The notes under the pieces are model-generated. The model was not told the origin of the DNA, did not search any database, and saw nothing but the letters and a program-made list of their open reading frames with translations. A stretch of DNA of 64,000 nt from Antedon mediterranea (lineage: Eukaryota > Animalia > Echinodermata), in contig NC_092680.1 of NCBI RefSeq assembly GCF_964355755.1, positions 10,230,001-10,294,000 on the forward strand. Reading direction: 5' to 3'. Each line of letters starts with the position of its first letter. The stretch's first letter is position 1. Position numbers and translations under genes: made by a program. Shown here piece by piece: positions 15,285 through 59,043 of the stretch.

Positions 15285-15318
<34 letters not shown>

Positions 15319-15497: not shown

Positions 15498-15689
15498 TTT
15501 CATGGTATTGCTCGAACTCGATTGGATAGCGACTCTTTAACATTCTCGGCGTGGTACGGCGGAACAGCACTAGTCCTCAGTTGTACGCACGCACACCAGA
15601 GATCAAATTGATACGCCCTCATCTTTCAGTATTTTTATTCACGAGGCGGGATCTCCGAAGAGATCGAAGATATATATATATGCTTGATA

Positions 15690-29889: not shown

Positions 29890-30715
29890 AGCCCCTTTCT
29901 CACAGAGTTGTGTGCCAGGAATATTGCGGGAATATACCATTACCATGCCGGTATGGTTTTCTGTGAGAACGGGTCGTCTTGGCATCATGCCGGCACCATG
30001 CCGGCATCGACATGACCTGCTTTAGACCTAGTAATATTCTAGGGATATTCCCCGCAATGCCAGACGGGCATTCTGTGAGAACGTATTGCCGTTATATTCC
30101 GGGGTTCCCCGTCGAGGCTTTGACACCTTGCGCAGTCAAGTGTATCACTTTGGCGCCTATTCAACAATAATAATGTGGAACTGGAGGGATAATGAGATAA
30201 GAGAGCTGCTTAAAATAAGGGGACAAGAAGAAATTTGTAGCATAATCTATATAGGCCGCTAGGCTAGGCCATTATTAATATTAGCTCTTTGTTTGTTGGT
30301 GCCTGACCTTTCGTCGCCTTGTAAATTGTAGGCCTACAGCCTTCTAAGGTGTTTTACAGATTGCCGATGACGGCAAATTAATTGCTATACCTGTATAATA
30401 TATGCACAATATACTGTACATAGCATGTATTGCATAAATATGCTATAAAGGAAGATAATAATCTGTAACTTAACATTCGCCGCCATATCATCGCTAGACA
30501 AAAATAATAACAATAAAGGACGCCCTCAATAATTATTTTGTCAGAGACTTTTTATTGGCCGAATATGCCCGACTCCTTTCTCACAGAAAGCCGGTATATA
30601 CCGGTTATATTTCCGGCACGATAGTCCGATGAGAATGGGTATATGCCGGTAACGATACCGGCACGACGCCAGCACTGTACCGGTATATTGCAGGCACATC
30701 TGTGAGAAAGGGGCT
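29890..30715 (+). mobile_element. PIF/Harbinger non-autonomous element
   Basis: TIR AGCCCCTTTCTCACAGA, 3-bp TSD TAG; internal remnant MWNWRDNEIRELLKIRGQEEI (30174) resembles the Harbinger Myb/SANT ORF. Confidence 0.8.
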
Positions 30716-32019
30716 TAGTTGGAATCAGTAGTACACGACTGTGTTGGACCATAATGTGGTCCAAGTTGACGGGCCAGGAATGATGGTAGTGCCCAGTATA
30801 CAATGTAGTTTAGCCTCAAGGCAATACCATGTAGCTGGATTAGCTTGGAGAAATACACTAGAGATTTCATGAGATTTGGTGTGTGATGATTCAGTTTGAT
30901 AATTAGCTGTGAAAAAAAAGTTGTTGAATTTTGAAGAAAATATTGTAAAATATAACAAGGAAGTTATACTATAGTATAATTAAGGGGTAACCGTAAAATA
31001 TATTATAATAATAAATTAAAATGCAATGGGAATTACTATTACTACTAATATTATGTATACAATACAATATTACAGTTAAATTCATAGGTCGATATTATTT
31101 TATTATTAAATCTGTTTTAGAATGAGAAAAAACCGTCCCAACCTAGATTTGAACCCAGCTATCAATAAAGCTATTGGTACGAGTTGACCAATTATTTGGG
31201 TACGAGTTAGCCAAGTTTGGTAAGAGTTGACATGGGTACGTTACGGAATACGGATAAAGGTCAACCCGTACCCCCATGCCGACTCGTTCCCATCCCATGG
31301 TAGAATACTACTTACATGTTAGTTTAGCCTAGCTGGGCTAACCTACCTCACCTCTCACATGCCCTCCTGAAAAAACGCGACCGAAATTACTGGAACCCTA
31401 CCCTAGCCTACTAGACCTAGATAGTAGTGATCCGTAGTACCATGGAACTATAATAAATGGTAGACGTACTAGTACTGTGTAGTATATGTTAACATGTCTG
31501 GCTCTACGAGGCCTTTTTATGCTCATAGGATGGCTTTTTTGGGCGTTCCAATGTAGGCCTATGCCTATAGCTAGGACAGATTTCCCATTCCTGCAGGCCT
31601 GTAGCCTATGCTCTAGTAGGGCGGCCGGGTGTACTCTGGTCGATTCACCCCTGGTCGACTCGTACCCATGCCAACTCGTACTTAACTTCCTACCCTAAAC
31701 TCGTATCCAACCAAATAATTGGTTGATTTCCCGCTAGACTAGTAGGCCTAGCCTACCTACAATATTCATTATGCCCTGCTAAAAAGGTAGATGAGCTACT
31801 AGACTAATTACGTAATTCGTATAATAATAACAATAATTGACTAGAAGGCCTAAAAGCGGCGGAAAACACCTATCCATTCTTGCATGGCAGTACGAAAACC
31901 TGCCTATGGTTGTACATCATTGTAAATTGTCAACACACACTGGGGTGTGTACTGTGTAGAAAGCGACGACCTCGAATTGGACGACCCCAACGACCCTGGC
32001 GACCTCGAATTGGACGACC

Positions 32020-32930: not shown

Positions 32931-35029
32931 GACCCATAACACGAAACCGACGACCCCTTTTGCCTAGCCTAGCCTAGACCTAAGTGTGGTATATAACATC
33001 CCGAAGGCGAACATAGCCAAAGATCTTTAAACCATACCTTATATGATACTCGCAAGCAAGCAATTGATTGAAAAAATACAGAAATATCGCCATTTGATAG
33101 GCCTACTGAATGTGTCGACACGAACAAACGAACAGATATGGAACTGCATTCGACATATTAAAAATAAATTTAAAAGAAATAAATATTATACATTACATGG
33201 TTAAACCATGGACGTATAATTGCATCTCCTCTTCTTATAACGAACACTATATGGCTACCAAGCAGCGTGTTGCGAACATGTGCATGTTCACCAAGTGAGT
33301 ATGGAAAGCCAAACCCGCCAAAAATACATAATACATACCATCCACCAATAATTAATTCGTACAAAATTCAAACCATCCAATATTATCTCATGCAGTTCAA
33401 TGAAAACTTAAACCATTCACCTAGTATCTACACCATCCAATACAATGTGTGACCATCTACCACTAGCCCAAACGACAGTACGCCGAACAAACTACCCATA
33501 ACACAAACCATCTAAAGAATGTTGAGCCCAGGCAGCAATAATTGAATTAATCTAACGTTAATACAAGTATATATTAGCCAACTCATTTATCAACATTTCA
33601 TGTAGTTCATGAACATTTCAAACAAAGCATCTTAATTTTAGTTCATCGAATTATAATTCTAATTCATTGCCTGTTTTATACACCGTTCGTCTGTTCAACA
33701 GTTGAAACAACTGTTTTGCACACGATACGCCCGTTCGTGAGTTCAAACCATGATATTTGAAGCATCGACTTTCCAAACAGCGATTTTTCGCACCGAACGT
33801 ATAGTCCAGTAAAATATCACCTTCACCATTGCATAACGTTAGTAGTCAACGAGATTCTCACCGTAGGTTCTAAACATTATGGTAAAGATCATTTATTGAT
33901 GTTGCGTCGCGTAAAAGTTGGGATTTGTAGAGAAAATGAAGTTTTTATACGCAGTTTTTGCTTCCTTTCGTCGTGGTTTGTTTTCATCGAAAAATGACGT
34001 CATGGGGCATAAGTGAATGACACGCCATTGTCGACATTTGCGTTCGTATTAAAAAGTGAATTTTAAATGTACGAATATGGTATTAATTATCTGTATTACA
34101 TTGTATTATTATGTATCACATATATAACAAGTCATTTTGATAAAAAATAAGTGAAATAAATATGAAAAACAAAGGAAAATTGTGATTTTTGCATATCATC
34201 TGAAGTGACCTTCCATACAATGTGATAGCGCCCTCTATAAGTATTGATACACTCGCACTTCAAACTGCAAGCTTTTTGTTGTTTATTCATTCATTCAGAA
34301 ATACAATTTAAGGAAGGAATCGAATCAAGGGCATTATTACTTGGTTTATTATATATTTATGATGTTTTCCCCAAAAATAATTACTAGTATGTACATTTTG
34401 CGAATTGTAGATGTACCGGCGGTATGAAATTAAAAAAAGCTGTTTACGCGGTCTGTAGCCTAACGATATAATAATAATTATATGTATAAAATAATTGTTA
34501 CTTTTTTTCTGATAAATCAGTATGAATATGTTTACTTAGCGCTGCTTTAAGCACCCTATTAAAAAAGAAAAGAAACAAATTAATTTAAGCCTATTTTTTG
34601 TCACGTTTTCGGTAATTAATTGTCTTCTTCGCTCTCACTATCTGATTCGTCACTGTTCTCATCATCCGAGTTAAAGGAGTCGTTCTCAGCAATCGCTCGT
34701 TCAATTCTGTTGGAAGAATCTCGCTTTCACACCATAAAGGCCCCAGCAAATCGTTATCGCCAACGCATCATCCGTTATTGTCTTGGGGTTTCGGCAACTC
34801 GTAAAATCGGTGTGTTAGTGCGAGCCTCCACAGATCCTGACTTGATAGTTCGATCATCGTGCGTTGTATATGTTGATGCAAGCATCTACGCGACGGTGGA
34901 AAGTTAGCTAATTTTTAAATCAATGTTTTTTTAACACTGATTATTCCGGTTTTTTTTTCTTGCATTTCCTGCGAAAAAAGTCAAATCTAAGTTCATCGGT
35001 AGGCCTACGCCTTGCTTTCGAACGGAATC

Positions 35030-35336
35030 CATAAAATAACAGGCACGTGAACTATTCCAGTTCCAACATTAACTCTTCTTCTCCTTTCCAACTTTCTCCT
35101 ACTTTCTTGAAAACCTCTTCAAATTTTGGATATTTTTCGACAAGTTTAATGGCCTTTAATTTTCCTTTTCCCTTGAAAGCGCTGGTCGTGCTGCACTTTG
35201 TGAACGCATGCAGCCCTAGAATGGCATTACATCGACTTGGGGTGATTTCAGTGGCTAAACTGCTGGTGAGATTGGTTATTTGTCAATTCCTGCCACTGCC
35301 TGTATCGAATAGGACTTTTGCAATAATGGACGAAAC
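35030..35336 (-). pseudogene. Academ-type (XPG-like domain) transposase remnant
   Basis: Manual translation: LFDTGSGRN*...CNAILGLHAFTKCSTTSAFKGKGKLKAIKL...LE*FTCLLFYG, matching the LHAFTGCDTTSAF.GKGK motif. Confidence 0.7.
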
Positions 35337-36531
35337 AAAATGTAACAATATAAAAAAAAAACATCGCTGTCTTATATGGATCCCAATCGAAATCAAGGAG
35401 TACCGATGAACTTAGATTTTACTTTCTTCGCAGGAAATGCAAGGAAAAAGACGGATAATCAGTGTTAAAAAACATTGATTTAACTAACTTTCCACCGTCG
35501 CGTAGTGCTTGCATCAACATATACGACGCACGGTCGAACTATCAAGTCATGATCTGGAAGCTCGCACTAACGCCGATTTAAGAGTTGCCGAAATCTCAAG
35601 ACAATAACGGATGGTGCGTTGGCGATAACGATTTGCTGGGGCCTCTTCCAACAGAATCGGATGATGAGAACAGTGACGAATCAGATAGTGAGAGCGAAGA
35701 AGACGATTAATTACCGAAAACGTGACAAAAAGTAAGCTTAAATCAATTTGTTTCTTTTTTTTAAATATGGTGCTTAAAGCAGCGCTAAGTAAACATTATT
35801 ATTCATACTGATTTATCAGAAAAAAGTAACAATTATTTTATACATATAATTATTATTATATCGTTAGGCTACAGACCGCGTAAACAGCTTTTTTTAATTT
35901 CATACCGCCGGTACAAACATCTACAATTCGCAAAATGAACATACTAGTAATTATTTTTGGGGAAAACATCATAAATATATAGTAAACCAAGTAATAATGC
36001 CCTTGATTCGATTCCTTCCTTAAATTGTATTTCTGAATGAATGAATTTATAACAACAAAAAGCTTGCAGTTTGAAGTGCGAGTGTATCAATACTTATAGA
36101 GGGCGCTATCACATTGTATGGAAGGTCACTTCAGATGACATGCAAACATCACAATTTTATTTTGTTTTTCATATTTATTTGACTTATTTTTTATCAAAAT
36201 GACTTGTTATATATGCGATACATAATAATACAATGTAATACAGATAATTAATACCATATTCGTACATTTAAAATTCACTTTTTAATACGAACGCAAATGT
36301 CGACAATGGCGTGTCATTCACTTATGCCCCATGACGTCATTTTTCGATGAAAACAAACCACGACGAAAGGAAGCAAAAACTGCGTATAAAAACTTCATTT
36401 TCTCCACAAATCCCAACTTTTACGCGACGCAACATCAATAAATGATCTTTACATACTGTTTAGAACGTACGGTGAGAATCTCGTTGACTACTAACGTTAT
36501 GCAATGGTGAAGGTGATATTTTACTGGACTA

Positions 36532-38316: not shown

Positions 38317-41300
38317 TGTAGTGTCTGGATTGGGAGACTAAGGGAAAGCAAGGCATTATGGGTTAAGGTAGATCGATATACTATAACCACATGGTTAGTA
38401 ATCTGTATGTACACAATGAAAGATGCAATAAAGACACATAAGATATAACATTGGCGACGAGTTAAGGAGAATATCGAACCACAAGTGATTAGAAGTTTCA
38501 ATACTGTAATTTTTGGCGATATATTTGTTTTAATACTGTTGTAACGATGACCGCTGTAAACGTTGAAATCACCGGAATCGCTGCGTATGATCCACACGAT
38601 GTGCACGCTTCGGCTGAACGGTGGAAGAAATGGCTTCGCAGTTTTGAATTATATGCTACTGGTAAAGGAGTAGTAAACAAAAACCAAAAGAAAGCTTTGT
38701 TATTGCATTGCGCCGGAATGGCTGTACAGGACATATATGACTGTTTAACAGAGGAGAACGGAACAGATGAGTATGATGTTGTTGTAAACACATTAAATAA
38801 ACAATTTGCTATGAAAACCAACGTACCGTATGAGCGTTATTGTTTTAGAAAACTGACGCAAGGTGATGACGAAACAATTCACCAATTTATAAACAGATTG
38901 AGGCAGCAGGCTGCAAAATGTGAATTTGATGATGCGAATGTTGATGAGTTAATTAGAGACCATGTTATTGAAAAATGCAAATCAAATAGACTGAGACTAA
39001 AATTGCTAGAAAAAGGAAATACTTTGAAATTAACCAATTTAAAAGCAATAGCTAGCACATTTGAAATGAGTGAGAAGCAAGCAAAGGAGATGTCACAAGA
39101 AGTTAATGGAGTGGAAACAACAAACATGAATGCAGTGAGGAATGAGAGATGGTCAAGATCAAGCACGACGAGCAGAAACAGGTACCAAGCTGGAAATTCA
39201 AGTGGTAGGCCTAACAGAACAAGTAAGTCAAAGTTCAATGATAGACAAGATAACCGGAAATGCTTTCGCTGTGGAAGAGAAGGACATTTGGCTAAGGATA
39301 AATGTTGTCCTGCAAGAGACAAGAAATGTAATAAATGTAAAATTTTGGGACATTTTGCTATTTGTTGCAAAACTAAATTAGGTAAAGACAAAAAGAGTAG
39401 TGGTATTAGTAATGTTCAAAATGGAAGTGAAGACGATGACTATGCTTTTGGTATACAAAATAATAATTCTAAAACTACAAAGATAAATGTTTGTATGGAT
39501 GTACATAAGGTAGAAATGATTGTTGATAGTGGTGCTACAGTTAATATCATAGATCAGTATTTATGGCAACAGTTAAAATCCAAGAAAATTAAATGCAAAT
39601 CTGAGTTGACAAACAGAAAGTTATATGCATATGGGTCAGAAAAACCATTAGAGTTGTTAGGAAAATTTACTACGAACATGTCAATTTTTCAAGGTACAGG
39701 TAATAATACTGAGCCTAAAATAACAGCAGATGTATATGTGTTAAAAGGGAAAGGCCCTGCTTTGTTGGGAGGTGATACTGCAATGAAGCTTGGAGTGTTA
39801 AATATTGTAATACCACAAGTGATAAATAGTGTACAAGATAAGTATACACAGGTATTTGAAGGTATTGGTAAATTAAAAGATTATAAGTTACATTTATTTA
39901 TTGATGAACAGGTAACACCAGTTGTTCAGAGCATGTATAGAATACCGTTTAGTCTCAAAGATAAAGTGAGTGATAAATTAGATGAGTTAGAATCTCTTGA
40001 CATAATTGAAAGGGTAGACGAACCAAGTGATTGGGTAAGTCCAGTCATAGTAGTGCCAAAACCAAATGGGGATATACGCCTCTGCGTAGATATGAGGCAG
40101 GCCAACCGAGCAGTTAAGAGGGAGAGGCATCCAATCCCAACAGTTGATGAAGTGTTGTATGAAATGAATCAAAGTACAGTGTTCTCTAAATTAGACATGA
40201 ATTACGGCTATCACCAAATTGAATTAGATGAGCAATCACGAAACATCACAACTTTCATAACTAACAAAGGTCTTTATCGGTACAAAAGGTTGATGTTCGG
40301 GATAAATGCTGCCCCTGAAAAGTACCAAAGAGTAATCAGTCAGACGCTGAGTGGATGCGAAGGTGTAGCTAACATATCAGATGACATTGTTGTACACGGG
40401 AGAACACAGACTGAACATGATGACAGACTTCGTGTAGTGCTTGAGAAATTTAAAGAAAAGAATTTGACCCTCAACAAGGATAAGTGTCAATTTTCTGTAT
40501 CACAGATAACATTCATGGGTCACATATTGTCAGCAAACGGAATCAAACCTACAATTGGGCGAGTCAGAGCATTGGCAGAATCAAAGAGACCAAAAACAGC
40601 TGCAGAAGTAAAAAGTTTCTTAGGTCTAGTTAACTTCTCAGCACGATACATTCCAAATTTAGCTACAGTTGCGGAACCCTTAAGACGACTAGTGCGAAAA
40701 GATTGTAATTTCTATTGGGGGTCTGAACAAGAAAATAGTTATGTAAAACTTACGAAATGCTTAACTAATGAAACATGTTTAGGCTATTTCAGATTAGATG
40801 CAGAAAGTACTCAGTTGGTGACAGATGCAAGCAATGTAGGCATTGGTGGAGTTTTAATTCAGAAAGACAATGGTGAAACCAGAGTTATAAGTTATGCAAG
40901 CCGAACATTATCAGCTACTGAAAAGAAATATTCAACAACGGAGAAAGAGGCATTGGCAGTGGTATGGGCTATGGAAAGGTTTCATGTTTACTTATATGGA
41001 CTACAGTTTGAATTGATAACTGACCATAAACCACTCGAAGGCCTGTATGGACCAAAGTCTAAACCAAATGCACGGATTGAAAGGTGGGTGATGAGACTTA
41101 TGTCCTATTCTTATACAGTAAAGTATGTACCTGGTAAGAATAACATTGCTGATATATTATCAAGGTTACCAATAGAAACTGATGGCAAACAGAATAATGA
41201 CAGTGATGACACAGAGATGTATATTCGATTGGTAGCATCAAATGCAACCCCATGTGCACTATCATCACGTGAAGTTGAAGAGGCATCAAAGGAAGATCCT

Positions 41301-43063
41301 GAATTGAGTAAAGTGAGAAATAGTATACGGACAGATAAATGGGACACAGACTTGATTCAGTATAGTGCAATACAACAAGAACTTGCATGTTTTGGATATT
41401 TAATTCTTAGAAACAGAAGGATTGTAATTCCAGAAAAATATAGATTACAGTGTATTGAATTAGCACACCAAGGACACTTGGGGATAGTCAAAACCAAGCA
41501 AAGGCTTAGAACCAAGGTATGGTGGCCTGGGATGGAGAAGAATGTGGAAGACTATGTTAAAACATGTCATGAGTGTCAGATAACAAGTTCGATGCCAGCA
41601 CCAGAACCATTGAAGCCAACACAACTACCAACAGGACCATGACAAGATATTTCGATTGACTTGCTGGGACCGTTTCCATCGAAGGATAATGTACTAGTGG
41701 TGGTAGACTATTATAGTCGTTATTGTGAAATTAGTTTAATGAAGACAATCACAAGTGAGAAAATTATAGACACACTTGAAAATATGTTTGTTCAACATGG
41801 CATACCAAAATCAATTACCTCAGATAATGGTGCCCAGTTTGTGTCCAATGAGTTTGAAACCTACCTGAAGGAAAATGGAATCAGACATAGACGTGTAACA
41901 CCATTACATCCAGCTGCAAACGGAGAGGTTGAACGACAAAATAGATCACTAATGAAAAGAATTCGCATTGCGCAAGCTGAAGGAAATGACTGGAAAAAAG
42001 AATTACGAGTGTACCTATTCGCATATCGTACAACCCCACATAGTGTTACCGGAGTGACACCAGCAGAAATGATGTGGAATAGAAAGTTGCGTACAAAATT
42101 GCCAGAATTAGATGACAATACAATAATGGACGAAGAAATTTCTGATCGTGATGCCGTGTCTAAATTAAAGAACAAACTGTACATTGATGAGAAGAGAGGT
42201 GCGAAGGAAAGTGATGTGTGTAAAGGAGATAAGGTTTTAGTGAAAGTGACACAGAGGGACAAGATGAGTACGCCATATCACACAGAACCATATGTAGTAA
42301 TAGAGAAAAAAGGGAATAGTGTAGTGGTTGAATCACCACAGGGTGTAAGATACAAAAGGAATTCGACACATGTTCGATCCTATAATGAAAGAGTAAATGA
42401 AGCAAATGTTAACACACCAAATGATAATTTAAAACAAATTGATACTAGTAAAGTTAATGGTAACAGTAAGATTGATAACACTGAACAGAATAAGCCAGTT
42501 GATACTGAGCAAAGTGACAAAATAACAAAGAGTAATGAAAATATGATAGTTAAAAGCAGACCAGTAAGAGAGAAGAGAAAACCCAAGAGGTTTGATGATT
42601 TTTAAAGTGTAAAATTAAGAAGTCATATTTATGAGTTATGTTAATTTTTAAAGTTCACCAGAAGTTGAGATTTCGTTAAGATGTTGAAAGTTTTAAGTGC
42701 TATTATATGCTAAGTTGTTCATTGATATTATAGGAATCTTGGAAATAATAAGAAATGATATGTGATCAAGGAAACATTTATAATATGCATGTATGATGAT
42801 ATTTGATTTAAAGTTTAAAGTTAAATTGTTTTGTTATTGTTAAAGTTAAAAAAAAACCAAAATGAATATCATATTGTATGGAGTTAATTGGGTTGTGAGT
42901 TTTAGCTAAAGAAGGGGGAAGATGTAGTGTCTGGATTGGGAGACTAAGGGAAAGCAAGGCATTATGGGTTAAGGTAGATCGATATACTATAACCACATGG
43001 TTAGTAATCTGTATGTACACAATGACAGATGCAATAAAGACACATAAGATATAAGATATAACA
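38317..43063 (+). mobile_element. Full-length young Mag-clade Gypsy LTR retrotransposon
   Basis: LTRs 38317-38450 and 42923-43063 (one substitution plus a 7-bp duplication apart), TSD ATAAC, PBS TGGCGACGAG (complementary to tRNA-Ser(GCU) 3' end), PPT AAAGAAGGGGGAAGA. Confidence 0.96.
38547..42605 (+). CDS. Gag-Pol polyprotein (2x CCHC, protease, RT, RNase H, integrase) with one premature TGA at 41640
   Basis: CFRCGREGH..C and CNKCKILGH..C, IVDSGA, ISDD, TDAS, HQGH..CHEC, SDNG, NGEVER; the two listed ORFs are in the same frame. Confidence 0.92.
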
Positions 43064-43974
43064 ATAACATCGGCAGGGGTTCGAGGCTCACGCACTCCAT
43101 GGTTCTGGTGGTAGAACGAGTCTTCTCGGATAAGGACTATAAACCGTAGGTCCAGTGTACACAACTTGCTCGTGTGCACTTTAAAGAACCTAGTACATCT
43201 TTCGAGACGAGTAGGTTACCCCGGTGTAGTAGTAGTACATCACAGCCACTGATCACCAACTGGGCCCTCTGGGAGATCAGTCTTTGACTGAAGAGGTCAC
43301 CCAGTATAAAGATAAAACAAACAAACAAAAACAAAAATAAGAAAGCTTTACATTTCACACATGCATTGTATACGGTCAAACCTTACCCGCCGCTGAAAAA
43401 GGGGCCGTTTTGACCTGGTTTGCCATGTTTATGATATTTCGTGTGCTAATCGAGTCGAATGCAGTTTTAATGATGCACTCTTGGCGTTCCATATCTGTTC
43501 GTTTGTTCGTGTCGACACATTCAGTATCAAATGGCGATATTCTGTATTTTTTCAATCAATTGCTTGCTTGCGATAAGATATGGTTTAAAGATCTTTGGCT
43601 ATGTTCGGCTTCGGGATGTTATACCACACTTAGGCCTAGGCTAGGCTATAGGCGTCGTCGGTTTCGTGTTATGGGTCGTCCAATTCTAGGTCGTCCAATT
43701 CGAGGTCGCCCGAGTCGTTGGGGTCGTCCAATTCGAGGTCGTCGCTTTCTACACACCCACACACACTGTGCTACAGACAGTGTACCGTGTGTTAAAAGTA
43801 CAGCATTTATAGCAGACAGCAACGTGTATAACTTGCTATAGTTTTACAGATAGCACCTGTGAACAGTAGCAGAATCGGGTGTCATTTTAATCCATAATCA
43901 ATAAATTTACTATCAGAAGGCACCGCCACCAGCATCAAACCGACTATAGAATTAATAGTTGTCACCATTACCAT

Positions 43975-45015
43975 TTTGCGCTTCCGATAGAAAAGTAAGG
44001 AATGACTCATCATCTAGATGATCACCAGATTGCGTTAATAGTAGCGCCAACGCACTTCGTACAGTACGGATCTGTCGTTCCCAAACTCCGCCCATGTGAC
44101 TGGCAGAAGGAACGTTAAACTTGAACTCAATCCAATCGCAATTCTGCTTCAGAAGAAATGCCTTTAACTTAGTTTCATCCATCTCTTGAATTACCTTTTT
44201 CAATTCATTGCTCGCACCCACCAAGTTTGTACCACGATCGGTTCGGGAATAGCTTCTCTTTCTTGAGCTATACTTACCGCGTTTAAACTGCGGGGGTTCA
44301 ATGCAGAACAGGAAACTGATAATTCTTATTGCGGTTTAACAAGGCATCGTAGTACTGTGCTTGTTCCGCCATGTCAGATACAGGAGCAGCTAACCCTGAG
44401 GGACGGGAAAGCAGAGGTGAAGAGCCGGATAATGCTCATAAAAGAGAAAGAACTCTGACTGAAAAAGGAAGAGAATATAAGTTAGAGTTAAAAGAAAAAG
44501 AGTTTAACGGTTGCGTTAAACATGTCAAGAAAGCCATAGCAATTCTGTCCAAAATTTGATTGCTCAGTCTGTGGATATTCATGTAATCCAAACGGAAATT
44601 GCAAAAATGGTCACAGTTACAGGAACGCTTGGTGACATTCAAGCAGATATGTATGAGTTATTGAGTGTAGAGAGACGAAAAGAATTGTATGATCGTTATG
44701 ATTATTATGATAGGATCGTATTTGAAACCAGACAATCTGCAAATGTAAAATTAAAGGAGTTGTTAAGTATGGAACAAGAGCAATTGTCAAGTAGAGCTAG
44801 CAGAGCAAGTAGACGTTCTGTTCGTTCGACAGTTAGTTCTAGCAAGTCTTCTGTAAAACAAAGGAAATATGAGTTAGCAGAGGCTGGAGCAGCAATTAAA
44901 GTGGAATTGTCGTTTATGGAGAAAGAACGTCAATTAGAGGAGAAAGAACGTCAATTAGAGGAGAAAAGACTACAACAGGAAAGATTGGCTAAAGAGTTAA
45001 AGTTACAGAAAGATT
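43975..45015. mobile_element. Rearranged BEL/Pao fragments
   Basis: 43975-44240 copies 46186-46452 (integrase, same orientation); LTR pieces at 44245-44310; 44311-45015 is an inverted copy of the leader + gag (58052-58745). Confidence 0.85.
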
Positions 45016-47429
45016 TGTTCTGCATGGAACCCCCGCAGTTTAAACGCGGACAAAACCACAGAAGAATAGCTTCTCTTTCTTGAGCTATACTTGCTCACTT
45101 TATTTCTACTCATCCGTTCATCCGGTAAACTAAAACAAAACAAACAGAGAAACAATTGAAACGGCGCTATTAAGCACGTCCCTAACGTATACTACGGCTT
45201 ATCACACATAACTTGCCGTTAACATGGGCATACTATCATCATTATGTCTATCAAACCTAACTAATTCATAAGTAAATAATAGATACAAATTATAAAATGT
45301 AAATACCTGATGCTAGGGCTCACTTATATATGATTATGTCTCCACACGAAGCATTGAAGGTGTACAACAACGTTAATACAACGTATCGCCTATTGTGCAC
45401 CGCTCTCATACAATGAACAGTGACTACAACAAATCGTGACTAGCCTAATTTACATATCAAGGTATCAAGGTGCGATGTACATACACAACATGGCTCCCTG
45501 CAAAGATAAATTATGAACCGACTGTATCATCACTTTTCCTTTGCATACACAACAATAGTTGCTCCTTGACGGGGAATTGATTACAATAATACTAAACTTT
45601 TTTCATAAATATTGTAAATATTTTCGTAAAATATCTTTCACTTGATTTATTTTCTAAGTGTCTTCATTTTTTCCTTTTTCTTTTCAGATATTAATTAATT
45701 ACTTATATCTGTTGGCATTAGCAGAACTAATTTATGTATTGGTCTCTCCAATGTAGAAAGTGGTTGACTTCTTTTACCACGATTATCTAGGTCCCTAGAT
45801 GCCATCGTTAGCTTGACTTTTCGTACAAGACCATCCTCACTTGTATATACATCTGAGACTTTTCCAACCTTCCAAGCGTTGCGAGGTAGACTTTCATCTT
45901 TGACGATCACAACGTCACCGACTTTCATGTTTCTTTTCTTATCACACCATTTCCTTTTAGGTTGAAGCGTTTGCAGATATTCTTTCTTCCAGCGATGCCA
46001 GAATTCGTTAGCCAGTTACTGCACTCTGCGCCATCTTTTCCTGCTATATAAATCTTTTCCTTGAAAATTATCAGGTGGTGGAAGTACAACGTTGGCCTTC
46101 ATCGTTAACAGATGGTTAGGTGTTAGAGGTTCTGGTACTTGAGCTTCTGACAAATTAGTTGTCAGTGGCCTTGAATTCACGATATTTTGCGCTTCCGATA
46201 GAAAAGTACGGAATGACTCATCATCTAGATGATCACCAGATTGCGTTAATAGTAGCGCCAACGCACTTCGTACAGTACGGATCTGTCGTTCCCAAACTCC
46301 GCCCATGTGACTGGCAGAAGGAACGTTAAACTTGAACTCAATCCAATCGCAATTCTGCTTCAGAAGAAATGCTTTTAACTTAGTTTCATCCATCTCTTGA
46401 ATTCCCTTTTTCAATTCATTGCTCGCACCCACCAAGTTTGTACCACGATCGGATCTTATCTGCCTACAAGGACCACGGATACTTAAAAACCGTCGAAGGG
46501 CGTTCAAGAACGAAGAGTATTAACTGACTCCATATGGATTGCCCCTGAATACATGCATGTAAACACCACCCCATATCGCTTCAATCGGCTTCTTCTTTCT
46601 CGAATATAGAACGGTCCAAAAATATCTACAGCGCAGTAGGTAAAAGGTGGATGGTTTTCCAGACGATCCTTTGGTAAATCTGCCATCTTCTGTGTTTGCA
46701 GTCCATCCCTTAGCCTACGACACGTTACACATCCGTGAATAATTGTTGAAACTGCAGACGATGCTCCAATTATCCAGTATCCACTCTGGCAAATGCGGTT
46801 ATGTGTAGTGCTCCGACCCATATGGTTAATCTCTTGATGATAATGTTGTATTATGAGATCAGTAACCTTGCACTTCTTTGGCAAGATTACGGGATTAGTG
46901 ACATCTAAAGGCAACATTGCATTCCGGATTCTACCACCTACTCGAAGGATGCCATTCTCATCTAGAAAGGGGTCTAATTTATACATGCAACTTGTCCGTT
47001 TTAGAGTAACCTTCCTCATTCGTGCCAAATTTCGTTCGGTAATCTCACCAGATTGCTTCACTTTTCGGAGAATTTCAATTTCTGATTTGAAGTACTCCGC
47101 CTGTGTACACTTGCAAATGAATCGTTCGCTATCTTGGAGGTCTGCTACAGACATCGGCGGTATACATTTCCCATTTGTACGAGAAGAGGCTAACAGATAC
47201 CTTTTCAGGCGTTGACAATTTGCAATAGCTCGTCTGAGTTAGAACCAACTAGAGAATCGCTCAAATCGTGTAATAATTGACTGATGCACATCCATCTCAC
47301 TATTCACCAAAGTAAACACAGTGGCTTTCTTCATTTCATTCACAATCTCAGTTTGAACTGTATCATCTGAAGACACTTGCACAGATGACAAATTTCGTTT
47401 TTGTAAAAGCACAAGTTAACGGAGTACTT

Positions 47430-47470
47430 ACTCGAACGTTTCGATCTCTATCAGAGATCCTTCTCAACTG
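47430..47470 (-). ncRNA. Sense-strand copy of the variant hammerhead-like motif at the PLE 3' end
   Basis: Reverse complement of 50150-50190, just downstream of the ORF stop. Confidence 0.55.
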
Positions 47471-50149
47471 ACTGCGGAGTGTTAATGCAGCTTGGTCATT
47501 CTTGACGTCATCTGTTGATGACGTCGTACGCCTCCGGCCGCAGGTCGGAGGCCGCGTGGGGCCCGGCCAGGCGATGCGTCCATCAAATCATTGCACAAAC
47601 GCGAGAGCCCGCGGGCCCCAGCGCCCCGGCCCACGGCCCCCTCCCCACCTCTCCCCACATGTAATGACTCTCCAATCTGTCTGTCTCTGCGTCTAGGCCC
47701 CTTGGCCAAGACGGCAGCCCCCCAGCCCGGTACATGACCGTGTCCCATGACATGCTCCGCAATGGCAGATTTGTGTATGATCGAAGATGTGGATGCTCTG
47801 GAGGCCCTAGTCATTACTCCCCCCGTGTTTGTTGTAACATCTTTTTTGTGATCATTAATTCGTGTCTGCAACGCCCCCCCCCCGCCTCCCCAATGCAAAC
47901 CCGTGGACAGCCGCGGCAGGCGACTTCGCAGATCACTCCACACGTATCCATCCTCTCGATTCTATCCTTCGGGTGGACGAGGCCATTCCCGATTTCATTT
48001 TGGGGTAGGAAATAGGTTCCGACATTGTGATAGGAGAGAGTGCGTCGTATTCTTTCTGCCATTCCTTCCACGTAGGGGACCCCCATGCCACCCCGCATCC
48101 CGATCTTCTCCCCCCGTTCCCCTTTCCCCTTCGGTCTTCCATAACTCTCTGGAAGGACCACTCTGGATACTGGCAGTTGTGTAACGCTTTCTTGATGTTA
48201 TCCATCTCAACTTTCCTCAAATCCATATCTCCCACTACCTTCTCAGCTCTGTCCACCAGCGTGTTTATAAGCCCCAGTTTGTGTTCGAGTGGATGATGTG
48301 AGTTGAAATGTAAATATTGGTCTGTGTGAGTGGGCTTCCGATAAACTGAGGTGGTAACTGTTCCATTGTCATTGAGTGTGATGAGCATGTCCAGGAAAGG
48401 TATTGTGTTGTTTGTCATCGATTCTGTGGTGAACTTGATATTGTCAGTTATATCGATGTTATTAAGATGTGTGTTAAATGTATGTACTGTACCTATGGGG
48501 ATGATAGCTAATACATCATCAACGTATCGTTTCCAATACACAGGCTTGATGTTAGTGGGTGCCGTGTTTATGGCTTGATGTTCGAGCCACTCTAGATACA
48601 AGTTCGCCAATATAGGACTTATTGGGCTTCCCATAGCAATGCCTTGTATTTGCCTATAAATGTTACCATTGAACGAGAAATAGGTTTTGTTCACAATTAA
48701 ACCGAGGAGCTCCATTATGTCTGTCACATGTAGTTTAGTTCTATCCAGAAGTGTCGGATCTGTTGTTAGGCGATTTTCGACAACTTTGAGGGCCTCTTCT
48801 ACTGGTGTTTTTGTAAACAGAGATACTACGTCAAACGAGACAAATGTTTCACTTGGTTTGACTATTATTTCTTTTAGTTCACTCGCCAACTCTCCTGAGT
48901 AAGTTACATGATGTTCTGTGTTTCCGACAAGTGGACCCAGGATTTTGGTGAGGAATTGTGCAACGGTGTAAAAAACGGTGTTGATGTTATCTACTATAGG
49001 TCTTAATGGCCAATTTGGTTTATGTATCTTCGGAAGACAATACAACCTAGGTACAATTTCAGCCGTGGGAAACAGCCATTCTTTCTCTCTGTAGTTGATT
49101 TTCTTTTCTTTGAACAACCTGCCTATGATGTTGACCACTTTTCGTTTATAGTTTTGTGTTGGATTACGTTTTAGCAGTTCGTAAACATTAGTGTCGCTCA
49201 CCATGGTTCCCACTTTATCTTTGTAATCATTAGTATTTAGGATGACAGTAGATCTACCTTTATCCGCTGGGAGAATAAGAATAGATTTATCTTTCTTCAA
49301 GTTGTTTATGGCCTTTCGTTCTTTGGGGGTTAAATTTGAAGGTGGTAGAGTGGTAGATTTTACAATAGCTACAATTTTACTGCGAACGGTGTCTTGTTCT
49401 TCCAGGGGGACGAGATCAGCCGCTTTTTCAGCCGCTACTATGAGATCGTCAATGGGCATGGATCGTGGGCTCGCCGCATAGTTCAATCCCCTTTGTAATG
49501 CTGATATTTCGTCCTCACTAACCAACTTACTAGACAGATTTACCACCCATTTTTCTCTTAAGATCTTACCGGATAAATCCTGTTCTTGATGTAAATCTCT
49601 AGCTGCGTTTTCTGCTTTGTTTTTCCACCACAACAGTTTGTTTTGTTGTCGTGATCGGCATTTTAAGAATTCCGCTTCACACACTTTGTTTACGTGATTA
49701 CATACATTGGTGATGTCCCCTCCGTTGCGAATTAGCGATACGATTTCATCATTTAAATCTTTCTTTTTGCCTTCTAACTGTGTGATTTTGTTGGTGGTGA
49801 TTCTTATTCTCTCGCGTAAAAGCTGTCTTTCTGCATGTTTTATTATTTCCTCTGCTTTAGACGATTTGATCGGTCGATATAATTTCAGGCTCGGAGGGGT
49901 AATGTCCAACCGCTTACAATGAAGGGAGAATACCCGGTGATTTCTCTGCCGTGAAATTTTCTTCGCGATATTTTCCTGTTTGCGTACGATGTTGATGGTT
50001 TCTTGACCATATTTTTCTCTTAAATCTTGAAAGAATTTCATTTAGCTTCGATTTTGTATAGATGACAAATTTCGACCTGCGGCCGGAGGCGTACGACGTC
50101 ATCAACAGATGACGTCAAGAATGACCAAGCTGCATTAACACTCCGCAGT

Positions 50150-50190
50150 CAGTTGAGAAGGATCTCTGATAGAGATCGAAACGTTCGAGT
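50150..50190 (+). ncRNA. Variant hammerhead-like motif in the PLE inverted repeat
   Basis: TTGAGAAG-GATCTCT-gat-AGAGATC-GAAA-cgt-TC; perfect stem II, palindromic AACGTT, non-canonical core. Confidence 0.55.
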
Positions 50191-51670
50191 AAGTACTCCG
50201 TTAACTTGTGCTTTTACAAAAACGAAATTTGTCATCTATACAAAATCGAAGCTAAATGAAATTCTTTCAAGACACTTGCACGTTTTTAAAAGGACCATCC
50301 TGATTCAAGAATTCTGCACCGTTAAACCAACTAGGAGTTTCCATTAATTTCTTGGCACTGACTTCACGACTGGCAATATCACTAGGATTAGATGAGGAGT
50401 TTACGTAATACCAATCACTACATGAGCTGAATTCGTGAATCTGCTGAATTCTGTTAGCAACAAACACATGGAATCGTTTAGCCTCGTTGTTAATATATCC
50501 TAACACGACTTGACTATCAGTCCAGAAGAATTCGTTCACTTTATGATGGTCGTAGTTTAATTCTTCTTTGACGAATTTGCTCATTCTAGCTGAGATAACT
50601 GCAGCAGATAATTCAAGACGTGGAATTGTGTACACCCTTCTTAATGGGGCAACTCTGGCTTTCGCAATTACTAATGAGCAAGCACATCTGTTATTCCGGT
50701 TGATTATTCTTAGATATGTGCACTGTCCATACGCAAACTCACTCGCATCTGAGAAGTAGTGAAGCTCAACATTTTGTATTTCTCCAAAATCACTTGTTTT
50801 ATAACAACGTTGGATCTGTAATTGCTTAAGCGCAACGATTTCTTTCCTCCACTTTTCCCATTTTGAGTATAGATACGAAGGTATTGGTTCATCCCATCCA
50901 ACATTTTCTCTACACATCTCTTGAAGAATAATCTTTCCTTCGAAGACAACAGGTGCTGCGAATCCTAGTGCATCGTATAAGGAGCTAATTGTTGATAAAA
51001 CGCCTCTTCGACTCAAAGGACAATCTTTCAATACTATTCGAAACTGAAAAGTGTCTGCTTCCACGCACAAAGTGACACCCAATGCACGTTCAATTGGTAG
51101 CGGATCGGTCTTGATGTCTAACGTTTTCAGACCCTTAGCTCTTTGCTCTTCAGGAATTGCTTCTAGAACAGCTCTTTTATTTGACATCCATTTGTGTAGC
51201 ACCAAGCCAGCTGATGCACAAAGTTCCGTGCTGCTCTTGACAAGTTCGATAGCCTGCTGAATAGTAGGAAGTGACTTTAAACCGTCGTCTACATAAAAGT
51301 CATCTCGAATAAAATTCTGCAATTTCACCAAACTTTCCTTCTCCGTCGTCGGCAGCTCGCTTCAAGCCAAAGATTGTACACCCGGGAAAGCTTTTAGCAC
51401 CGAACAAATGAACTTTCATACGATATTCCACCAATTTTTTTTCAAAGTCACTACCATCCCACCACAAGAACCGTAGTTTGTCTCGATCTTTGGGAGTTAC
51501 ATAAAATTGATGGAACATCCCTTTTATATCGGCCATGATGACAACCTCTTCTTTCCGGAACCGACATAGAATACCAACCAGGCCATTCATTAAATCTGGA
51601 CCCTGAAGTTGGTAATCATTTAAACAGACGCCTTCGTATTTCGCCGAACAGTCGAACACAACTCTTATTT

Positions 51671-54600
51671 GGAGTGGAGTGGAGATCTAAATTGCATCAT
51701 GAATAGTGACATTGACCAAAAAGGTAGCGCAAATAGGTCTGATAAATCTGTTTTTACGATTAAAAACCTAATGAAAAATTTAAATTTAAATGATATTTGG
51801 AGATCCAAAAACATGAATAAGCGACAATTTACGTGGCGTAAGAGATTTAACAACATTTTCCGTAGGCTGGATTACTGGTTAATATCAGAAGATCTCTTTT
51901 TAAATGGAGATGTTTTAGCCTGTGACATTCGTCCAGCTATTCTCACAGATCACCAGGCGGTATCAATTAAAATAGATTTGCATGAAAAAAAACGCGGTCC
52001 TGGTTTATGGATGTTCAACAATAGCTTTCTGAAAGATGAAACATTTACAAAATTAGTAATTAAAATAATTGATGTTTCAATACTAAAAAATAATAGAGAA
52101 CCTGTAAGTGCAAATTTGTTATGGGAGCTTGTAAAAACAAAAATAAAAGAATTTTCAATTGCATACGGAAAACAAAAAAATAAAAACCAGAATAAAAAGA
52201 AAGAAAAATTACAAAAACAAATAAAAAACTTAAATGAAACAATTATGAATACTCAAAATTGTGATATAACCATTGAAAATAAAATTGAAAACAAAAAAAT
52301 AGAGCTTGAAAACATTTATAATGTAGAAGCAAAAGGCGCGCAAATTAGGTCCAGAGTAAAATGGATAGAGGAAGGCGAGCGGAATACAAAATACTTTCTT
52401 GGGTTAGAAAGATCCAAAAGTAAAAAGAAACACATAAAAAGTTTAATTACTAAAGATGGGAGCTTAGCAACGAGCCCAATTGATATTTTAAAGGAACAAA
52501 TACAACATTTCGAAGGTTTATACGCAAAAAATGTTATAAACCCTGGAAAAATTAATAAATACCTTTGTAATTCTATTATAAACAAGCTTTCAGAAATAGA
52601 AAAAGAAAATTGTGAAGGTTACGTCACTATTGATGAATGTAAAAAGGCCATTTTCAATGATGGAAAAAAATAAAACACCTGGATCGGATGGTCTAAGTGT
52701 TGAATTTTATGTGTTCTTTTGGAATAATATTAAACATTTAATTTGCGATGCGTTAAATGAAAGTTATAATTCTCAAGAATTATCCTTTTCGCAAAAACGA
52801 GGTGTAATCACCCTTTTGTTCAAGGATGGAGAAAGAGAAAATTTGAATAATTGGCGTCCCATTACCCTCTTAAACACCGATTACAAAATTCTTGCACATG
52901 TATTAAGTAACAGACTTAAAATGGTTATTAAATCAATAGTAAGTTCAGACCAAAAAGGTTATATAAAAGGCCGTTTCGCTGGTGAAAACATTCGGTTAAT
53001 AGAAGACCTGCTTTATTATACAGAGTGTAATGATATCGAAGGGGCAATAATTACCGTAGATTTTAAGAAGGCTTTTGACTCTATTAGTAGAGATTTTATG
53101 TTCAATGTTCTAGAAAAGTTTAACTTTGGAATGTTCTTTTGTAACTGGGTAAAAGTATTATACAATAACGTTGAATGTGTTACAGTTAACAATGGTTGGG
53201 TTTCAAACAATTTTAAAATGGAAAGAGGTATTAGACAAGGTTGTCCTCTATCTGCTCTGTTATTCATTTTAGTGGTTGAAGTAATGGCATCTAGAATAAG
53301 AAACAAAGATGACTATAAGGGTATTAAACTTCCAAATAATGAAAATAACATAGAAGCTAGAATAAGCCAATTAGCCGATGATACTGTTTTGTATGTTGGT
53401 AATGACAAAAGTATTAAGTCAGCAGTCAGTGTAATTAAACGTTTTTGCGAAGTATCTGGAATGACACTAAATAAAAAAAAACCAATGCTTTTTGGATTGG
53501 TAAATGGAAGAACAGAATAGATAGACCTTTAGAATTAAATTGGGTAAAACACCCGATCAAAATTTTAAGCATATATGTAGGGTATAATACAGAAGAATGT
53601 ACCAGAAAAAACTGGGATGTTAAATTAATAGAGCTAGAAAAGACTTTAAAACAATGGAATGCTAGAAATCTCTCAATTTTTGGTAGAATAATAATCCTGA
53701 AAAGTCTTGCACTATCTAAATTAACATATGCTGCAAATATCACTGATGTTCCAAAATATGTATATACACAAGTTACAAATCTAATATATAATTTTATTTG
53801 GAACAATAAAAGGGAAAAGATAAAAAGAAAAACTCTAATTGGTGATGTTGAGATGGGAGGCATTAAAATGCCTGATTTTACTCTTCATGTTAACGCACTC
53901 ATGTGTGGCTGGTTAAAAAGAATTATGAATGATGATGGTGCTAAATGGAAAAATATTCCAATGTATTATATTAAAAAAATATGTGATGTTAATGTTTTAC
54001 TTAATATGTCATGTTATAACATTATTGATGTTAATTCTGATAAAATTCCACTGTTTTACAAAAATATGATAAAAGCCTACATAAATTATAACAGAATCTC
54101 TAAAAAAAACCTGAAACTTATAACGATATAATGAATGAGCAACTGTGGGGAAACCACTACGTTAAACTAAAAAAAAAACGCTTTTCTACAAGCATTGGAT
54201 TGACAGTGGCATTATCAGTATTAAAGACATTGTTAATAAGAACACTTTTTTAACATCGAACGAAATACTGGTGAAACTACAATGTAAAACAAACTGGTTA
54301 AATGAGTATTTGTGCATTATTAAGGCAATACCAATTCAATGGAAACGTATTATTAAGGAGGTAGATATTTTCAATTGTGATGATAATGATGAAGTAGTTG
54401 GGACTAAGTATGAGATTAATACTACCAAACTAATATACTCATGGTTTGTGAAAGAATATTTCATTATTCCAATGTCACAACTAAAATGGGAAGAGTACTT
54501 CAATGATAACAACATTGATTGGAAAACTTCTTGGTTACGGAAAGTATGTAAAATGAAAGATAAGAAACTAGCACAATTCAATTATAAGATGTTACATAGA

Positions 54601-55380: not shown

Positions 55381-58300
55381 AACTCTTATTTCATTCGTTT
55401 TTTTTGGATGGTACACGCCTGAATGCGGTATGTAATTAACACTACCATCGGTTACGCCGTACTCAGATTCAGGTACCTTTTCTGCATAGCCTGCAAGTAT
55501 ACCATTCATAAAGGCAATATAGTGTTCTTTAAATGTTGAATTTCTTTTAAACTTTCTCTTAAGCTGCAAAGCCCGTCTCACGGCTGCTAAACGATTGTTA
55601 GGAAATCGTACATCTTCACGACACATCGGCAATGGCATCTCATAATGACCATCATTTCTCTTGACAATTTTACTGGAAAGTATGGAAATAAATCTATGAT
55701 CTTCCACAGAATATCCCTTTTTTGTTGATACATGCTCTACAAAATCCATCTCAAACATCTGCCTAACCTGTTGCATGCTGATTATTTCTTTCACCTTGGT
55801 AGCATGAGTAAGTCTGTTTTTAGGATTTTTGACTGTGTCAACGCAGCCTGGATTTCTAGAAGATTGCTTATGGGAATCAGATAGAGTTTTGAAAGTTTTG
55901 CTAACATTTCCAATTATTCCCCCCATCCCAGAATGGAACGTTGGCCATAAGGATCGTTTTCATCTCCAGCCACAATCTCACGTGGTCTTATTGCTCGGGG
56001 TATAGGCCTATCGTTACCAATAAGGATCCCAATTTTTACGTCTGGTAAGTATGGTACAATCAGATTAGCAATGCGCTGTAAATGTGAGAATTTATTCGCG
56101 TCTTGCTGTCTGGGTATTTGTGATCTTCCTATTGGAATCTGGTCTCTTGTAAACACTCTCGATAGAGGAACCATTTCTTTTCTGTCAAAACTCAACACTT
56201 CCAAATTGTGAATTTTCCTACTAGGTATCATCACGTTTGCTTCTAGCATCGTAGACAGTGAGAGTTGAGTTGCATGCCCATAAACTTGAAGTTGATTAAA
56301 CAGATCATCTGAAATAAAACTGCTATTGCTTTGTGGATCCAGAATACAATACTGAAGAATCTCATTTGAAACATCATTTTTATTTCGGACCCATACAGGT
56401 ACCACCATTGAATTATCAATATTCTGTCGGCGTACCAAAGTACGATGAGAAGTGGTAGGCACTAGCCTCCTGTCAAAGTGTAGGCTAGTAAGGTGTTCGT
56501 TAGAACATGTTTTACATTTGATTCTGTTTTCACATGTGTTTAATTGATGTTGGTCAGTCATTCCGCAACCATAACATAACCTATTTTTTCTCAAGAATTC
56601 TTTTCTCTCCTTCCGGATTAGATTCTTGAACTTTCCACATTCGTCAACATGATGAGCCTCTTCACAAAACGGACATTTTTTACCATCAAAGTTCACAGTT
56701 TTTCTTTGGTTTGTTTCATCGTGCGCTACTGTGGCCAACGATGAAGTATTCTCACTTTGTACCCTTTGTTGTCTTGACCTTGTAGTTCCTTTGACTTCAT
56801 CACTCTTGTAACGTTGTTGAATTTAGCAAATTTAGTAAACGTTGGAAATATAGGCCTCTGTTCTTGGACAATATGACGCCACTTTGCTTCAATATATAAT
56901 GGCAATTTTGTAACAAGTTTCGCATTCTCTTGTGGGAAATTCAACATTTGTAGATACGGAATTCTCTGCATCGCAACATTCACTTCGTTTACAAAGTCAG
57001 AGAATTTCTGCAAGCTGGAAGCATCACGTACGCGGATATTTGGCCATGCATTGAGCTTGTCTGTAAAAGCTTTCGCAATGACACTGTCATTACCGTATCG
57101 TTCCTTCAATTCCATCTTAGCATATACATAAGCGTCTTCTGTCTGCAGTAACAAGTAGTTATATAGTAGTAATATTCTTTGGCTCACCAGCCAAATGTTG
57201 ACTTAACAAGTTCAGCTTCTCGTCAATATTAATTGCCTTTGATTCAATCAGAGCATTAAAAGAAGATTCCCACATCGGGTACTTAAGTGGATCACCACTA
57301 AAAACCTCAACTTTTAATGCTGGAAGCCTTATAGAATCAACGATCTGTTTCATTAAATTTGCTGTTGATGTTGGCAATTCGCTTACAACATTGTTCGTCG
57401 ATACCATCTCAGCTGCTTGACCATATACAGGTACTGCATACGACAATGTAACTGAGTTAGCGTGAACATGAGAAGAAACCAACGATTGTGGCAAGGTATT
57501 TGGATAACAACACACTGGACGGTCCGATAAGGCAGGCGTTGTGTACATAACAGATTGATCCACTGTGCTGTAATGGCTCTGTGTTCTTACATTTGTAGGC
57601 GCAATGGGATAGTCAGAAACGGCAAAGCTCACAGACACTGGTTGCGTAACCTTTCTACCATATGAAATTGGATGAGGCGTCAAAGACGAAACTGCATGTA
57701 ACATGATATTGACGCGTCTCACAGCGAGCTGGGGCACGAACGATTCGTACAAAGGACACCGCCAGACAACTGCAACAGTCAGGTCTTGGTTTTCCATATT
57801 AACTCGTTGATATATGGAGGCAACATGATCTAAAACAATCTCTGTAGTAGTTAATTGTGGTTCACTAACTACACGCACGATCGGAACATCTTTACCAGTA
57901 TCAACTTTTAAATACACATCATTCAGAAATCGTTTCATGTCGTGTTGTTTATCTTCTCCGGGTAATCCTTCAACTACCTGCTCAACAGAAAAATAATCTT
58001 CTTCTTCTGCTTTCAGACAGATGCTCATCTTCGCCATGTTTTTTGCCAAATCTTTCTGTAACTTTAACTCTTTAGCCAATCTTTCCTGTTGTAGTCTTTT
58101 CTCCTCTAATTGACGTTCTTTCTCCATAAACGACAATTCCACTTTCATTGCTGCTCCAGCCTCTGCTAACTCATATTTCCTTTGTTTTACAGAAGACTTG
58201 CTAGAACTAACTGTCGAACGAACAGAACGTCTACTTGCTCTGCTAGCTCTACTTGACAATTGCTCTTCTTCCATACTTAACAACTCCTTTAATTTTACAT

Positions 58301-59043
58301 TTGCAGATTGTCTGGTTTCAAATACGATCCTATCGTAATAATCATAACGATCATACAATTCTTTTCGTCTCTCTACACTCAATAACTCATACATATCTGC
58401 TTGAATGTCACCAAGCGTTCCTGTAACTGTGACCATTTTTGCAATTTCCGTTTGGATTACATGAATATCCACAGACTGAGCAATCAAATTTTGGACAGAA
58501 TTGCTATGGCTTTCTTGACATGTTTAACGCAACCGTTAAACTCTTTTTCTTTTAACTCTAACTTATATTCTCTTCCTTTTTCAGTCAGAGTTCTTTCTCT
58601 TTTATGAGCATTATCCGGCTCTTCACCTCTGCTTTCCCCCTCTGCTTTCCCGTCCCTCAGGGTTAGCTGCTCCTGTATCTGACATGGCGGAACAAGCACA
58701 GTACTACGATGCCTTGTTAAACCGCAATAAGAATTATCAGTTTACTGTTCTGCATGGAACCCCCGCAGTTTAAACGCGGACAAAACCACAGAAGAATAGC
58801 TTCTCTTTCTTGAGCTATACTTGCTCACTTTATTTCTACTCATCCGTTCATCCGGTAAACTAAAAAAAAAAAAAAAGAAACAATTGAAACGGCGCCATTA
58901 AGCACGTCCCTAACGTATACTACGGCTTATCACACATAACTCGCCGTTAACATGGGCATACTATCATCATTATGTCTATCAAACCTAACTAATTCATAAG
59001 TAAATAATAGATACAAATTATATAATGTAAATACCTGATATGA

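Follow-up and report, generated by a model that had tools for sequence, protein, structure and literature searches.

How did one copy of a Penelope-like element come to carry a strikingly G-rich sense sequence over its endonuclease region, when the rest of the same copy is nearly indistinguishable from its family? The question arises in a stretch of 64,000 nucleotides (hereafter the window) that matches the feather star Antedon mediterranea at the protein level, where the element, on the minus strand, has inserted into another retrotransposon. The features that define the insertion and its host site are as follows.

46504..47238, minus strand: host element downstream of the insertion, integrase zinc-binding region (Pfam Integrase_H2C2, E 3.9e-6)
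47370..47382, no strand: left copy of the target-site duplication, 13 bases, identical to 50269-50281
47383..50074, minus strand: main unit of the Penelope-like element (self-alignment; covered by family contigs)
47383..47537, minus strand: unedited 3′ end, 0 of 49 As changed, with the ORF stop at 47484-47482
47933..50041, minus strand: 702-aa ORF (ORF list, Pfam RVT_1 E 4e-7, protein matches)
50073..50272, plus strand: inverted 5′-truncated arm, 200 bases (self-alignment)
50269..50281, no strand: right copy of the target-site duplication, its first 4 bases overlapping the end of the inverted arm
50267..51361, minus strand: host element upstream of the insertion, pol fragment of a Pao-type LTR retrotransposon (Pfam Peptidase_A17, E 3.6e-50)

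The insertion interrupts the pol region of the Pao-type element and is bounded by a perfect 13-base duplication, of which the window holds these two copies only. The main unit comprises one full monomer plus 15 bases of terminal redundancy, running from 33 bases 5′ of the ATG to a point 18 bases short of the ATG of the next unit. The arm consists of 165 bases identical to 47547-47383 followed by a 35-base tail (50238-50272) that ends 17 bases into the ORF; with its 200 bases and a tail within 30-40, it gives the pseudo-LTR arrangement expected of EN+ Penelope-like elements. The RT domain lies inside a single long ORF and scores over the Pfam cut-off (RVT_1, E 4e-7). About 641 codons of this ORF, including an RT with YVDD, are in the family frame, and an out-of-frame tail follows past a 16-base deletion. 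The ORF is 98-100% identical to A. mediterranea proteins, one of which (P0124) extends into the flank in the window and therefore models this very locus. Downstream of the RT, two frames align to residues 651-722 and 725-820 of P0005, that is, to its Pfam GIY-YIG region. A C-terminal GIY-YIG region is present after the RT, but out of frame and with both tyrosines changed to cysteine; the window's own endonuclease frames gave no Pfam match.

Several observations concern the same copy. At 48492-48491 (minus strand), all seven A. mediterranea family gene models read exit the element at or just past a LAIIP/LAIVP motif where a GT donor is found, which may reflect either a real splice donor giving RT-only proteins fused to flanks or a habit of gene prediction. 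The last seven bases of the target primer (47376-47382) differ from the continuation of the element by C for T at three places only; such a primer would fully pair with A-to-I edited RNA, and the match may be due to chance. Near the 3′ end, at about 47434-47458, a hairpin followed by GAAAC folds into what we take to resemble a minimal hammerhead; no Rfam hammerhead match was obtained up to E 5, and the Rfam search of the element returned a chance snoRNA match only.

The surroundings are rich in other repeats. Near-identical pieces of the Pao-type host occur as an inverted 750-base pair (44277-45017 and 58047-58779) and a direct 272-base pair (43973-44244 and 46184-46455), a rearrangement that suggests nested or scrambled insertions. 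On the plus strand, 38493-42605 holds the nearly intact gag-pol-like ORFs of an LTR retrotransposon, presumably Gypsy (1049 aa and 320 aa, with one stop between), accompanied by 135-base direct repeats at 38317 and 42923, while 51624-54131 (plus strand) holds an element in broken, shifted frames that we take to be a non-LTR element with endonuclease-like and RT-like frames. Long inverted repeats lie at 8734-11851, 22438-31942, 24723-27040, 33802-36531 and 14813-15681, with arms of 0.4-1.25 kb at 88-91% identity and shorter ones nested within; their mismatches are of mixed types and form no editing-like cluster.

The family was represented by contigs of five public runs (X1, X2, X3, X5 and X6) out of 22 listed, aligned to the element. 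Three of the five runs derive from one sample, X5 from a second sample (RNA, by our guess) and X6 from a different organism. Family contigs are collapsed and of high depth, and rare variants are dropped from them; depth was not taken as copy number. The sense strand of the element being the minus strand, a C in the window facing a T in the family on the plus strand stands for sense G against family A. For 47250-48900, 40 of the 105 difference rows were itemised, and the 33 rows of the upstream comparison are complete. Positions 47586-47641, without coverage in X1, X2 and X6, were excluded from the evidence. The gapped part was re-aligned as one 16-base gap, with letters of loose ends added for the positioning of sites; an apparent C>G at 48126 was dropped as an artefact of the gapped alignment. 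In this way 81 A>G sites were positioned, and four more in 47944-47983 follow by subtraction (59 minus 35 minus 20), for a total of at least 85. Zone counts exclude 47568-47628, which could not be assessed, and three untyped differences in 47659-47692. The zone and its parts, in the sense direction, are the following.

47538..48136, minus strand: A>G hypermutated zone, covering the linker, the GIY-YIG domain and the ORF end (family contig comparison)
48068..48136, minus strand: dense patch 1, 20 of 35 family As changed
47997..48067, minus strand: unedited gap, 0 of 25 As changed
47866..47996, minus strand: dense patch 2, with both GIY-YIG Tyr -> Cys changes; 16 of 24 As changed in 47866-47943
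47761..47865, minus strand: nearly unedited gap, 1 of 41 As changed
47538..47760, minus strand: dense patch 3, with 18/28, 14/17 and 8/9 As changed in three assessed parts, 47568-47628 excluded

The initial annotation of this locus had claimed a sense cluster made of A>G only, at 47548-48135. Tabulation by type and strand against the family contigs bears out the zone, with limits slightly wider than proposed, and yields at least 85 sense A>G against two other typed changes (48072, and 47557 at a CpG). Where the assessment is complete, 78 of the 185 family As read G, against none of 716 in 48137-50072 (Fisher p 3.5e-61), a stretch of 1,936 bases with five ordinary differences and a sixth, at 49814, in X3 and X5 only. 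The spectra differ accordingly, with 85 A>G versus 2 others inside the zone and 0 versus 5 outside (Fisher p 4e-7). Between 47250 and 48900, a window C facing a family T accounts for 59 of 63 differences in X1, 51 of 54 in X2, 59 of 62 in X5 and 64 of 88 in X6. Together, the three dense patches have 77 of 119 As changed. Divergence other than A>G is 0.40% inside the zone and 0.26% outside (p 0.64), so that the zone and the remainder of the copy are equally young. Sense A>G outnumber sense T>C by 85 to 1, which points to RNA rather than to the first cDNA strand. When both strands were scanned, the zone proved to be the strongest G-over-A patch in the window, and none of the 20 other repeat pairs of at least 100 bases within the window has a one-type mismatch cluster. 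The pattern is present in the assembly, far beyond chance.

Two frame breaks accompany the changed letters.

between 48115 and 48116, minus strand: 16-base deletion relative to the family, first frame break (16 inserted letters in X1 and X3 contigs; a loose end in X5 agrees)
47874..47883, minus strand: 10-G homopolymer made by edits, two bases longer than in the family, second frame break (two letters absent in X1, X2 and X6 contigs)

A single frameshift, in the run of 10 Cs on the plus strand, had been proposed behind an RT ORF thought to continue uninterrupted into the endonuclease. The two extra bases are indeed found there, but they are not the sole break: the 16-base deletion, which had been missed, lies upstream, so the endonuclease is already out of frame before the C run and the ORF ends at 47933. 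At 48112-48120 short A-rich repeats flank the deletion. With their As edited they would make up one longer direct repeat, an arrangement in keeping with slippage of the reverse transcriptase.

The family comparison agrees with most of the residues initially reconstructed, namely Tyr to Cys in both GIY-YIG tyrosines (sites 47929 and 47896, codons 47930 and 47897), ETG to EAG, MN to VG of the NRD motif and I to V in SLHI; the residue before W, called D, is N in the family. Among the changed codons 40 of 55 are non-synonymous, and the three codon positions show no bias (30/67, 20/51 and 20/51 As changed). The YIG tyrosine presumably corresponds to Y17 of Poseidon. In a Poseidon protein, Y17A abolishes DNA cleavage (PMC11167929). 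The copy keeps its RT frame, and its endonuclease is predicted to be dead. As to direction, the G-rich form is not shared by the family contigs, which carry A. So does X6, from a different organism, where 34 sites out of the 35 listed for 47693-47943 show the family letter. Because the family letters also restore Tyr, Thr and Asn residues conserved in distant homologues, G is the derived state.

The inverted arm provides an internal control, since it begins within the zone.

50073..50082, plus strand: first 10 bases of the arm, lying within the edited zone (X2 and X5 loose ends before 50083)

The arm has G at 50079, 50081, 50082 and 50074 where the family has A, and the left copy has the same letters; 50074 falls within the 2-base overlap of the junction, which leaves three unambiguous Gs. 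The two arms also share one unedited A. They lie on opposite DNA strands, so that a strand-specific miscall or later local damage would not produce the same Gs in both, and the Gs were likely already in the template of both arms. This sharing is compatible with one RNA molecule, two similarly edited molecules or an edited donor gene. The arm stops 10 bases inside the edited zone, a position that suggests, from this one case, a stall at the edge of a duplex. Two apparent A>G differences between the arms, at 47380 and 47382, were rejected as edits, both being inside the target duplication.

The choice of As resembles that of ADAR. Within the patches, the edited share by 5′ neighbour is 16/19 after U, 35/51 after A, 14/23 after C and 10/24 after G. 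The avoidance of a 5′ G noted at the outset is therefore recovered by count (10/24 against 65/93; Fisher p 0.016, within-patch permutation p 0.005) in patches that were delimited after the edits had been seen; over all assessed As the difference is not significant (10/36 with 5′ G against 66/147, p 0.09). By 3′ neighbour the shares are 17/22 for G, 17/23 for C, 33/52 for A and 8/19 for U, with no enrichment of a downstream A. According to PMC3113232, human ADARs favour 5′ U and A over C and G; PMC5625713 describes depletion of upstream G at edited sites across Metazoa and enrichment of downstream A for invertebrate ADARs. As to the duplex, no intramolecular stem of the element scored above the shuffled maxima (best 13, against 12-14 in shuffles), and no partner arm for the edited stretch emerged when purine-collapsed words were searched in the window, a search that would miss a partner itself edited.

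Support in the public contigs is uneven. At the listed edited sites, the window letter appears in none of the contigs of X1, X2, X3 and X6, collapsed contigs being prone to lose rare variants. The best sharing by any run was 0.66-0.69 of sampled words, against about 0.74 expected with family words only, an expectation that used placeholder positions for the unassessed parts. No contig crosses the central junction, where one unrelated low-depth contig in X1 and X3 was met at 50080. A 26-base family motif had no match in metagenome contigs, and the edited C-terminal frame was matched by 0 of 253 candidates in a protein search. That the window letters are missing from the contigs is not disproof, as one edited copy may disappear among its many siblings. 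At the two outer junctions, X2 offers contigs free of differences (47343-47410 and 50245-50330), each reaching 28 letters into the element, under the 31-letter rule applied. In X1, X3 and X6, some flank contigs lack the insertion and differ slightly from the window; they may come from a paralogous host copy or from the other haplotype. With these contigs, and with edited letters recovered in no contig, the initial description of the change as genomically fixed is not supported. In X5, 7-12 contigs each show a minority sense A>G at 50118, 50138, 50140 and 50151, none of them with a 5′ G and none seen in X1-X3. Five X5 contigs of low depth also align to the most heavily edited part, to which no family contig of X1, X2 or X6 aligns; they retain A at 47631, 47634, 47637 and 47640, in three cases after a 5′ G. 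The X5 letters weakly suggest that this region was edited independently, but allelic variants in a second animal can give the same picture.

The best explanation, with a probability of about 0.85, is that an RNA of the element was hyper-edited by ADAR and that its inosines were copied as G into the chromosome by target-primed reverse transcription. Retrotransposition of a hyper-edited transcript had been proposed from the start, and it agrees with every test run here, namely type, strand, derived state, 5′ bias, codon neutrality and the arms; it stands as the favoured reading of those tests. The endonuclease-coding part of the sense transcript would have paired with an antisense partner that this copy lacks; the partner would probably have been either a long inverted arm at the donor locus or an antisense transcript. 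In three patches, ADAR would have turned about two thirds of the As into inosine. An intact protein, likely supplied by a sibling copy or translated before editing, would then have nicked the two target strands 13 bases apart, and two cDNAs would have been primed at the two start sites of the element, 35 bases apart. One cDNA would have been extended over the entire unit, probably with slippage at the newly formed G/I runs (the 16-base deletion and the two extra bases), while the other would have stopped 10 bases into the edited zone to give the inverted arm. A Poseidon protein nicks and extends both target strands, with two start sites bounding the tail (PMC11167929), which fits the two primed cDNAs invoked here. 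This explanation does not account for the two gaps, or for the lack of edits in the last 155 bases.

An unlikely variant of the same explanation places the editing at least one transposition round earlier, the present copy being derived from an edited genomic donor mobilised in trans. It would give both arms the same Gs without needing one RNA molecule, and the five ordinary differences in 1,936 bases could be marks of the donor lineage; the lack of any contig with window letters in four runs makes an amplified edited subfamily improbable, and the arm stop 10 bases into the zone would rather fit an obstacle on the RNA during this insertion. Outside the editing of RNA, the changes could have arisen at the DNA level, by T:G misincorporation during second-strand synthesis under dATP shortage or by dA being deaminated in DNA that is single-stranded or in a hybrid. 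Such processes would likewise leave one-way clusters in a new insertion, and ADARs can edit the DNA of hybrids in vitro (PMC12925331). Deamination of the first cDNA strand would leave sense T>C, seen once against 85 A>G, and misincorporation would not be expected to reach rates as high as 8 of 9 As, or to give sharp limits and avoidance of a 5′ G. Both arms, moreover, would need like damage on opposite strands, and we hold a DNA-level origin to be improbable.

Marginally less probable still is an artefact of sequencing or assembly, in which the G-rich stretch is a miscall or a polishing product and the true locus has A. The failure to recover edited words in the contigs of five runs would be explained, extra bases in a homopolymer are a common read error, and a systematic clustered miscall is known from old trace data, but of G-to-A type (PMC2873906). 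The same Gs nevertheless recur in arms that lie 2.5 kb from each other and on opposite strands, the neighbouring bases show an enzyme-like bias, X2 has contigs without differences on both junction sides, and 20 other repeat pairs of the window (at least 100 bases each) are free of one-type clusters. Collapsing or polishing of repeats, besides, pulls toward family letters and not away from them, which counts against this reading. Pairwise comparison alone has no direction, and the polarity might in principle be reversed, with G ancestral and siblings changed from G to A in an APOBEC-type process, or with the G-rich form as a normal subfamily. This we regard as negligible: X6 has A, the family letters coincide with the conserved Tyr, Thr and Asn of distant homologues, and the window letters accompany two frame breaks. 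An APOBEC DNA-edited retroelement was likewise rejected, as it requires sense G>A clusters where A>G with A ancestral is observed.

ADAR editing of the RNA followed by reverse transcription, the preferred reading, lends itself to a broader and more tentative proposal, to which we give somewhat less than even odds. ADAR would repeatedly mutate Penelope-like elements in the germline, the duplexes being supplied by the inverted-arm insertions of these elements themselves; endonuclease-dead edited RNA would be mobilised in trans; and the edits would be a barcode of both arms primed on one tandem or circular RNA, the short arm ending at the edited duplex. The initial annotation also cast ADAR as a restriction factor for these elements, a role that this locus does not support: on the favoured explanation the edited RNA integrated despite its edits, and one copy cannot reveal the fitness effect on the family.

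Our literature search found no ADAR-hyper-edited retrotransposon copy in a germline genome; it left most subscription papers and supplements out of scope, and a prior report is possible. A 2016 review describes the role of ADAR editing in retrotransposon evolution, or in suppression by mutation, as not yet determined (PMC4982230). The available parts of PMC5974252, PMC3820591 and PMC12548423 contain no established genomic case, and the last reports an A>G excess in Mtv61 without ADAR context. A genomic copy with a clean ADAR signature makes this mutational role testable from assemblies, through strand-specific A>G clusters counted per family. If true, the explanation provides an RNA-to-DNA route by which edits become heritable mutations in invertebrates, where APOBEC-type DNA editing is reported absent (PMC4866542). 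Shared edits would further serve as a tracer for the way in which Penelope inverted arms form.

Among known systems, ADAR hypermutation in avian retroviruses (PMC12925331) is close to what is seen here: in a stretch of reverse-transcribed RNA, roughly every second A has become G, and one case lies in an inverted repeat. Those cases are infectious retroviruses, whereas the present one is an endogenous Penelope-like element, integrated with two arms and a target duplication in an invertebrate chromosome. The DNA editing of LTR retrotransposons by APOBEC (PMC4866542 and PMC2873906) likewise leaves strand-biased one-type clusters in inherited copies, but as sense G>A introduced through the cDNA of vertebrate LTR elements, in contrast to the sense A>G pointing to RNA. 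The screen described in PMC4866542 found none in 19 invertebrates; it kept alignments dominated by G>A and was not built for A>G. ADAR1 restriction of LINE-1 (PMC5224506) also sets an ADAR against a non-LTR retrotransposon; in that paper, restriction is independent of editing and L1 RNA is unedited, whereas editing is what shows in the present copy. The hyper-edited repeat RNAs of PMC5625713, a lizard Penelope among them, share the substrate class, the clustered A>G and the depletion of upstream G; there massive editing is seen in RNA reads only, while here it is found in a genome assembly, and the downstream-A preference of invertebrates is absent. EN+ Penelope-like elements (PMC11167929 and PMC8557442) combine an RT and, at the C terminus, a GIY-YIG domain with an inverted truncated 5′ copy and a tail of 30-40 bases, here 35. 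Unlike the elements so described, the present copy has its endonuclease region hypermutated and out of frame, and its edits mark the two arms as copies of one template sequence.
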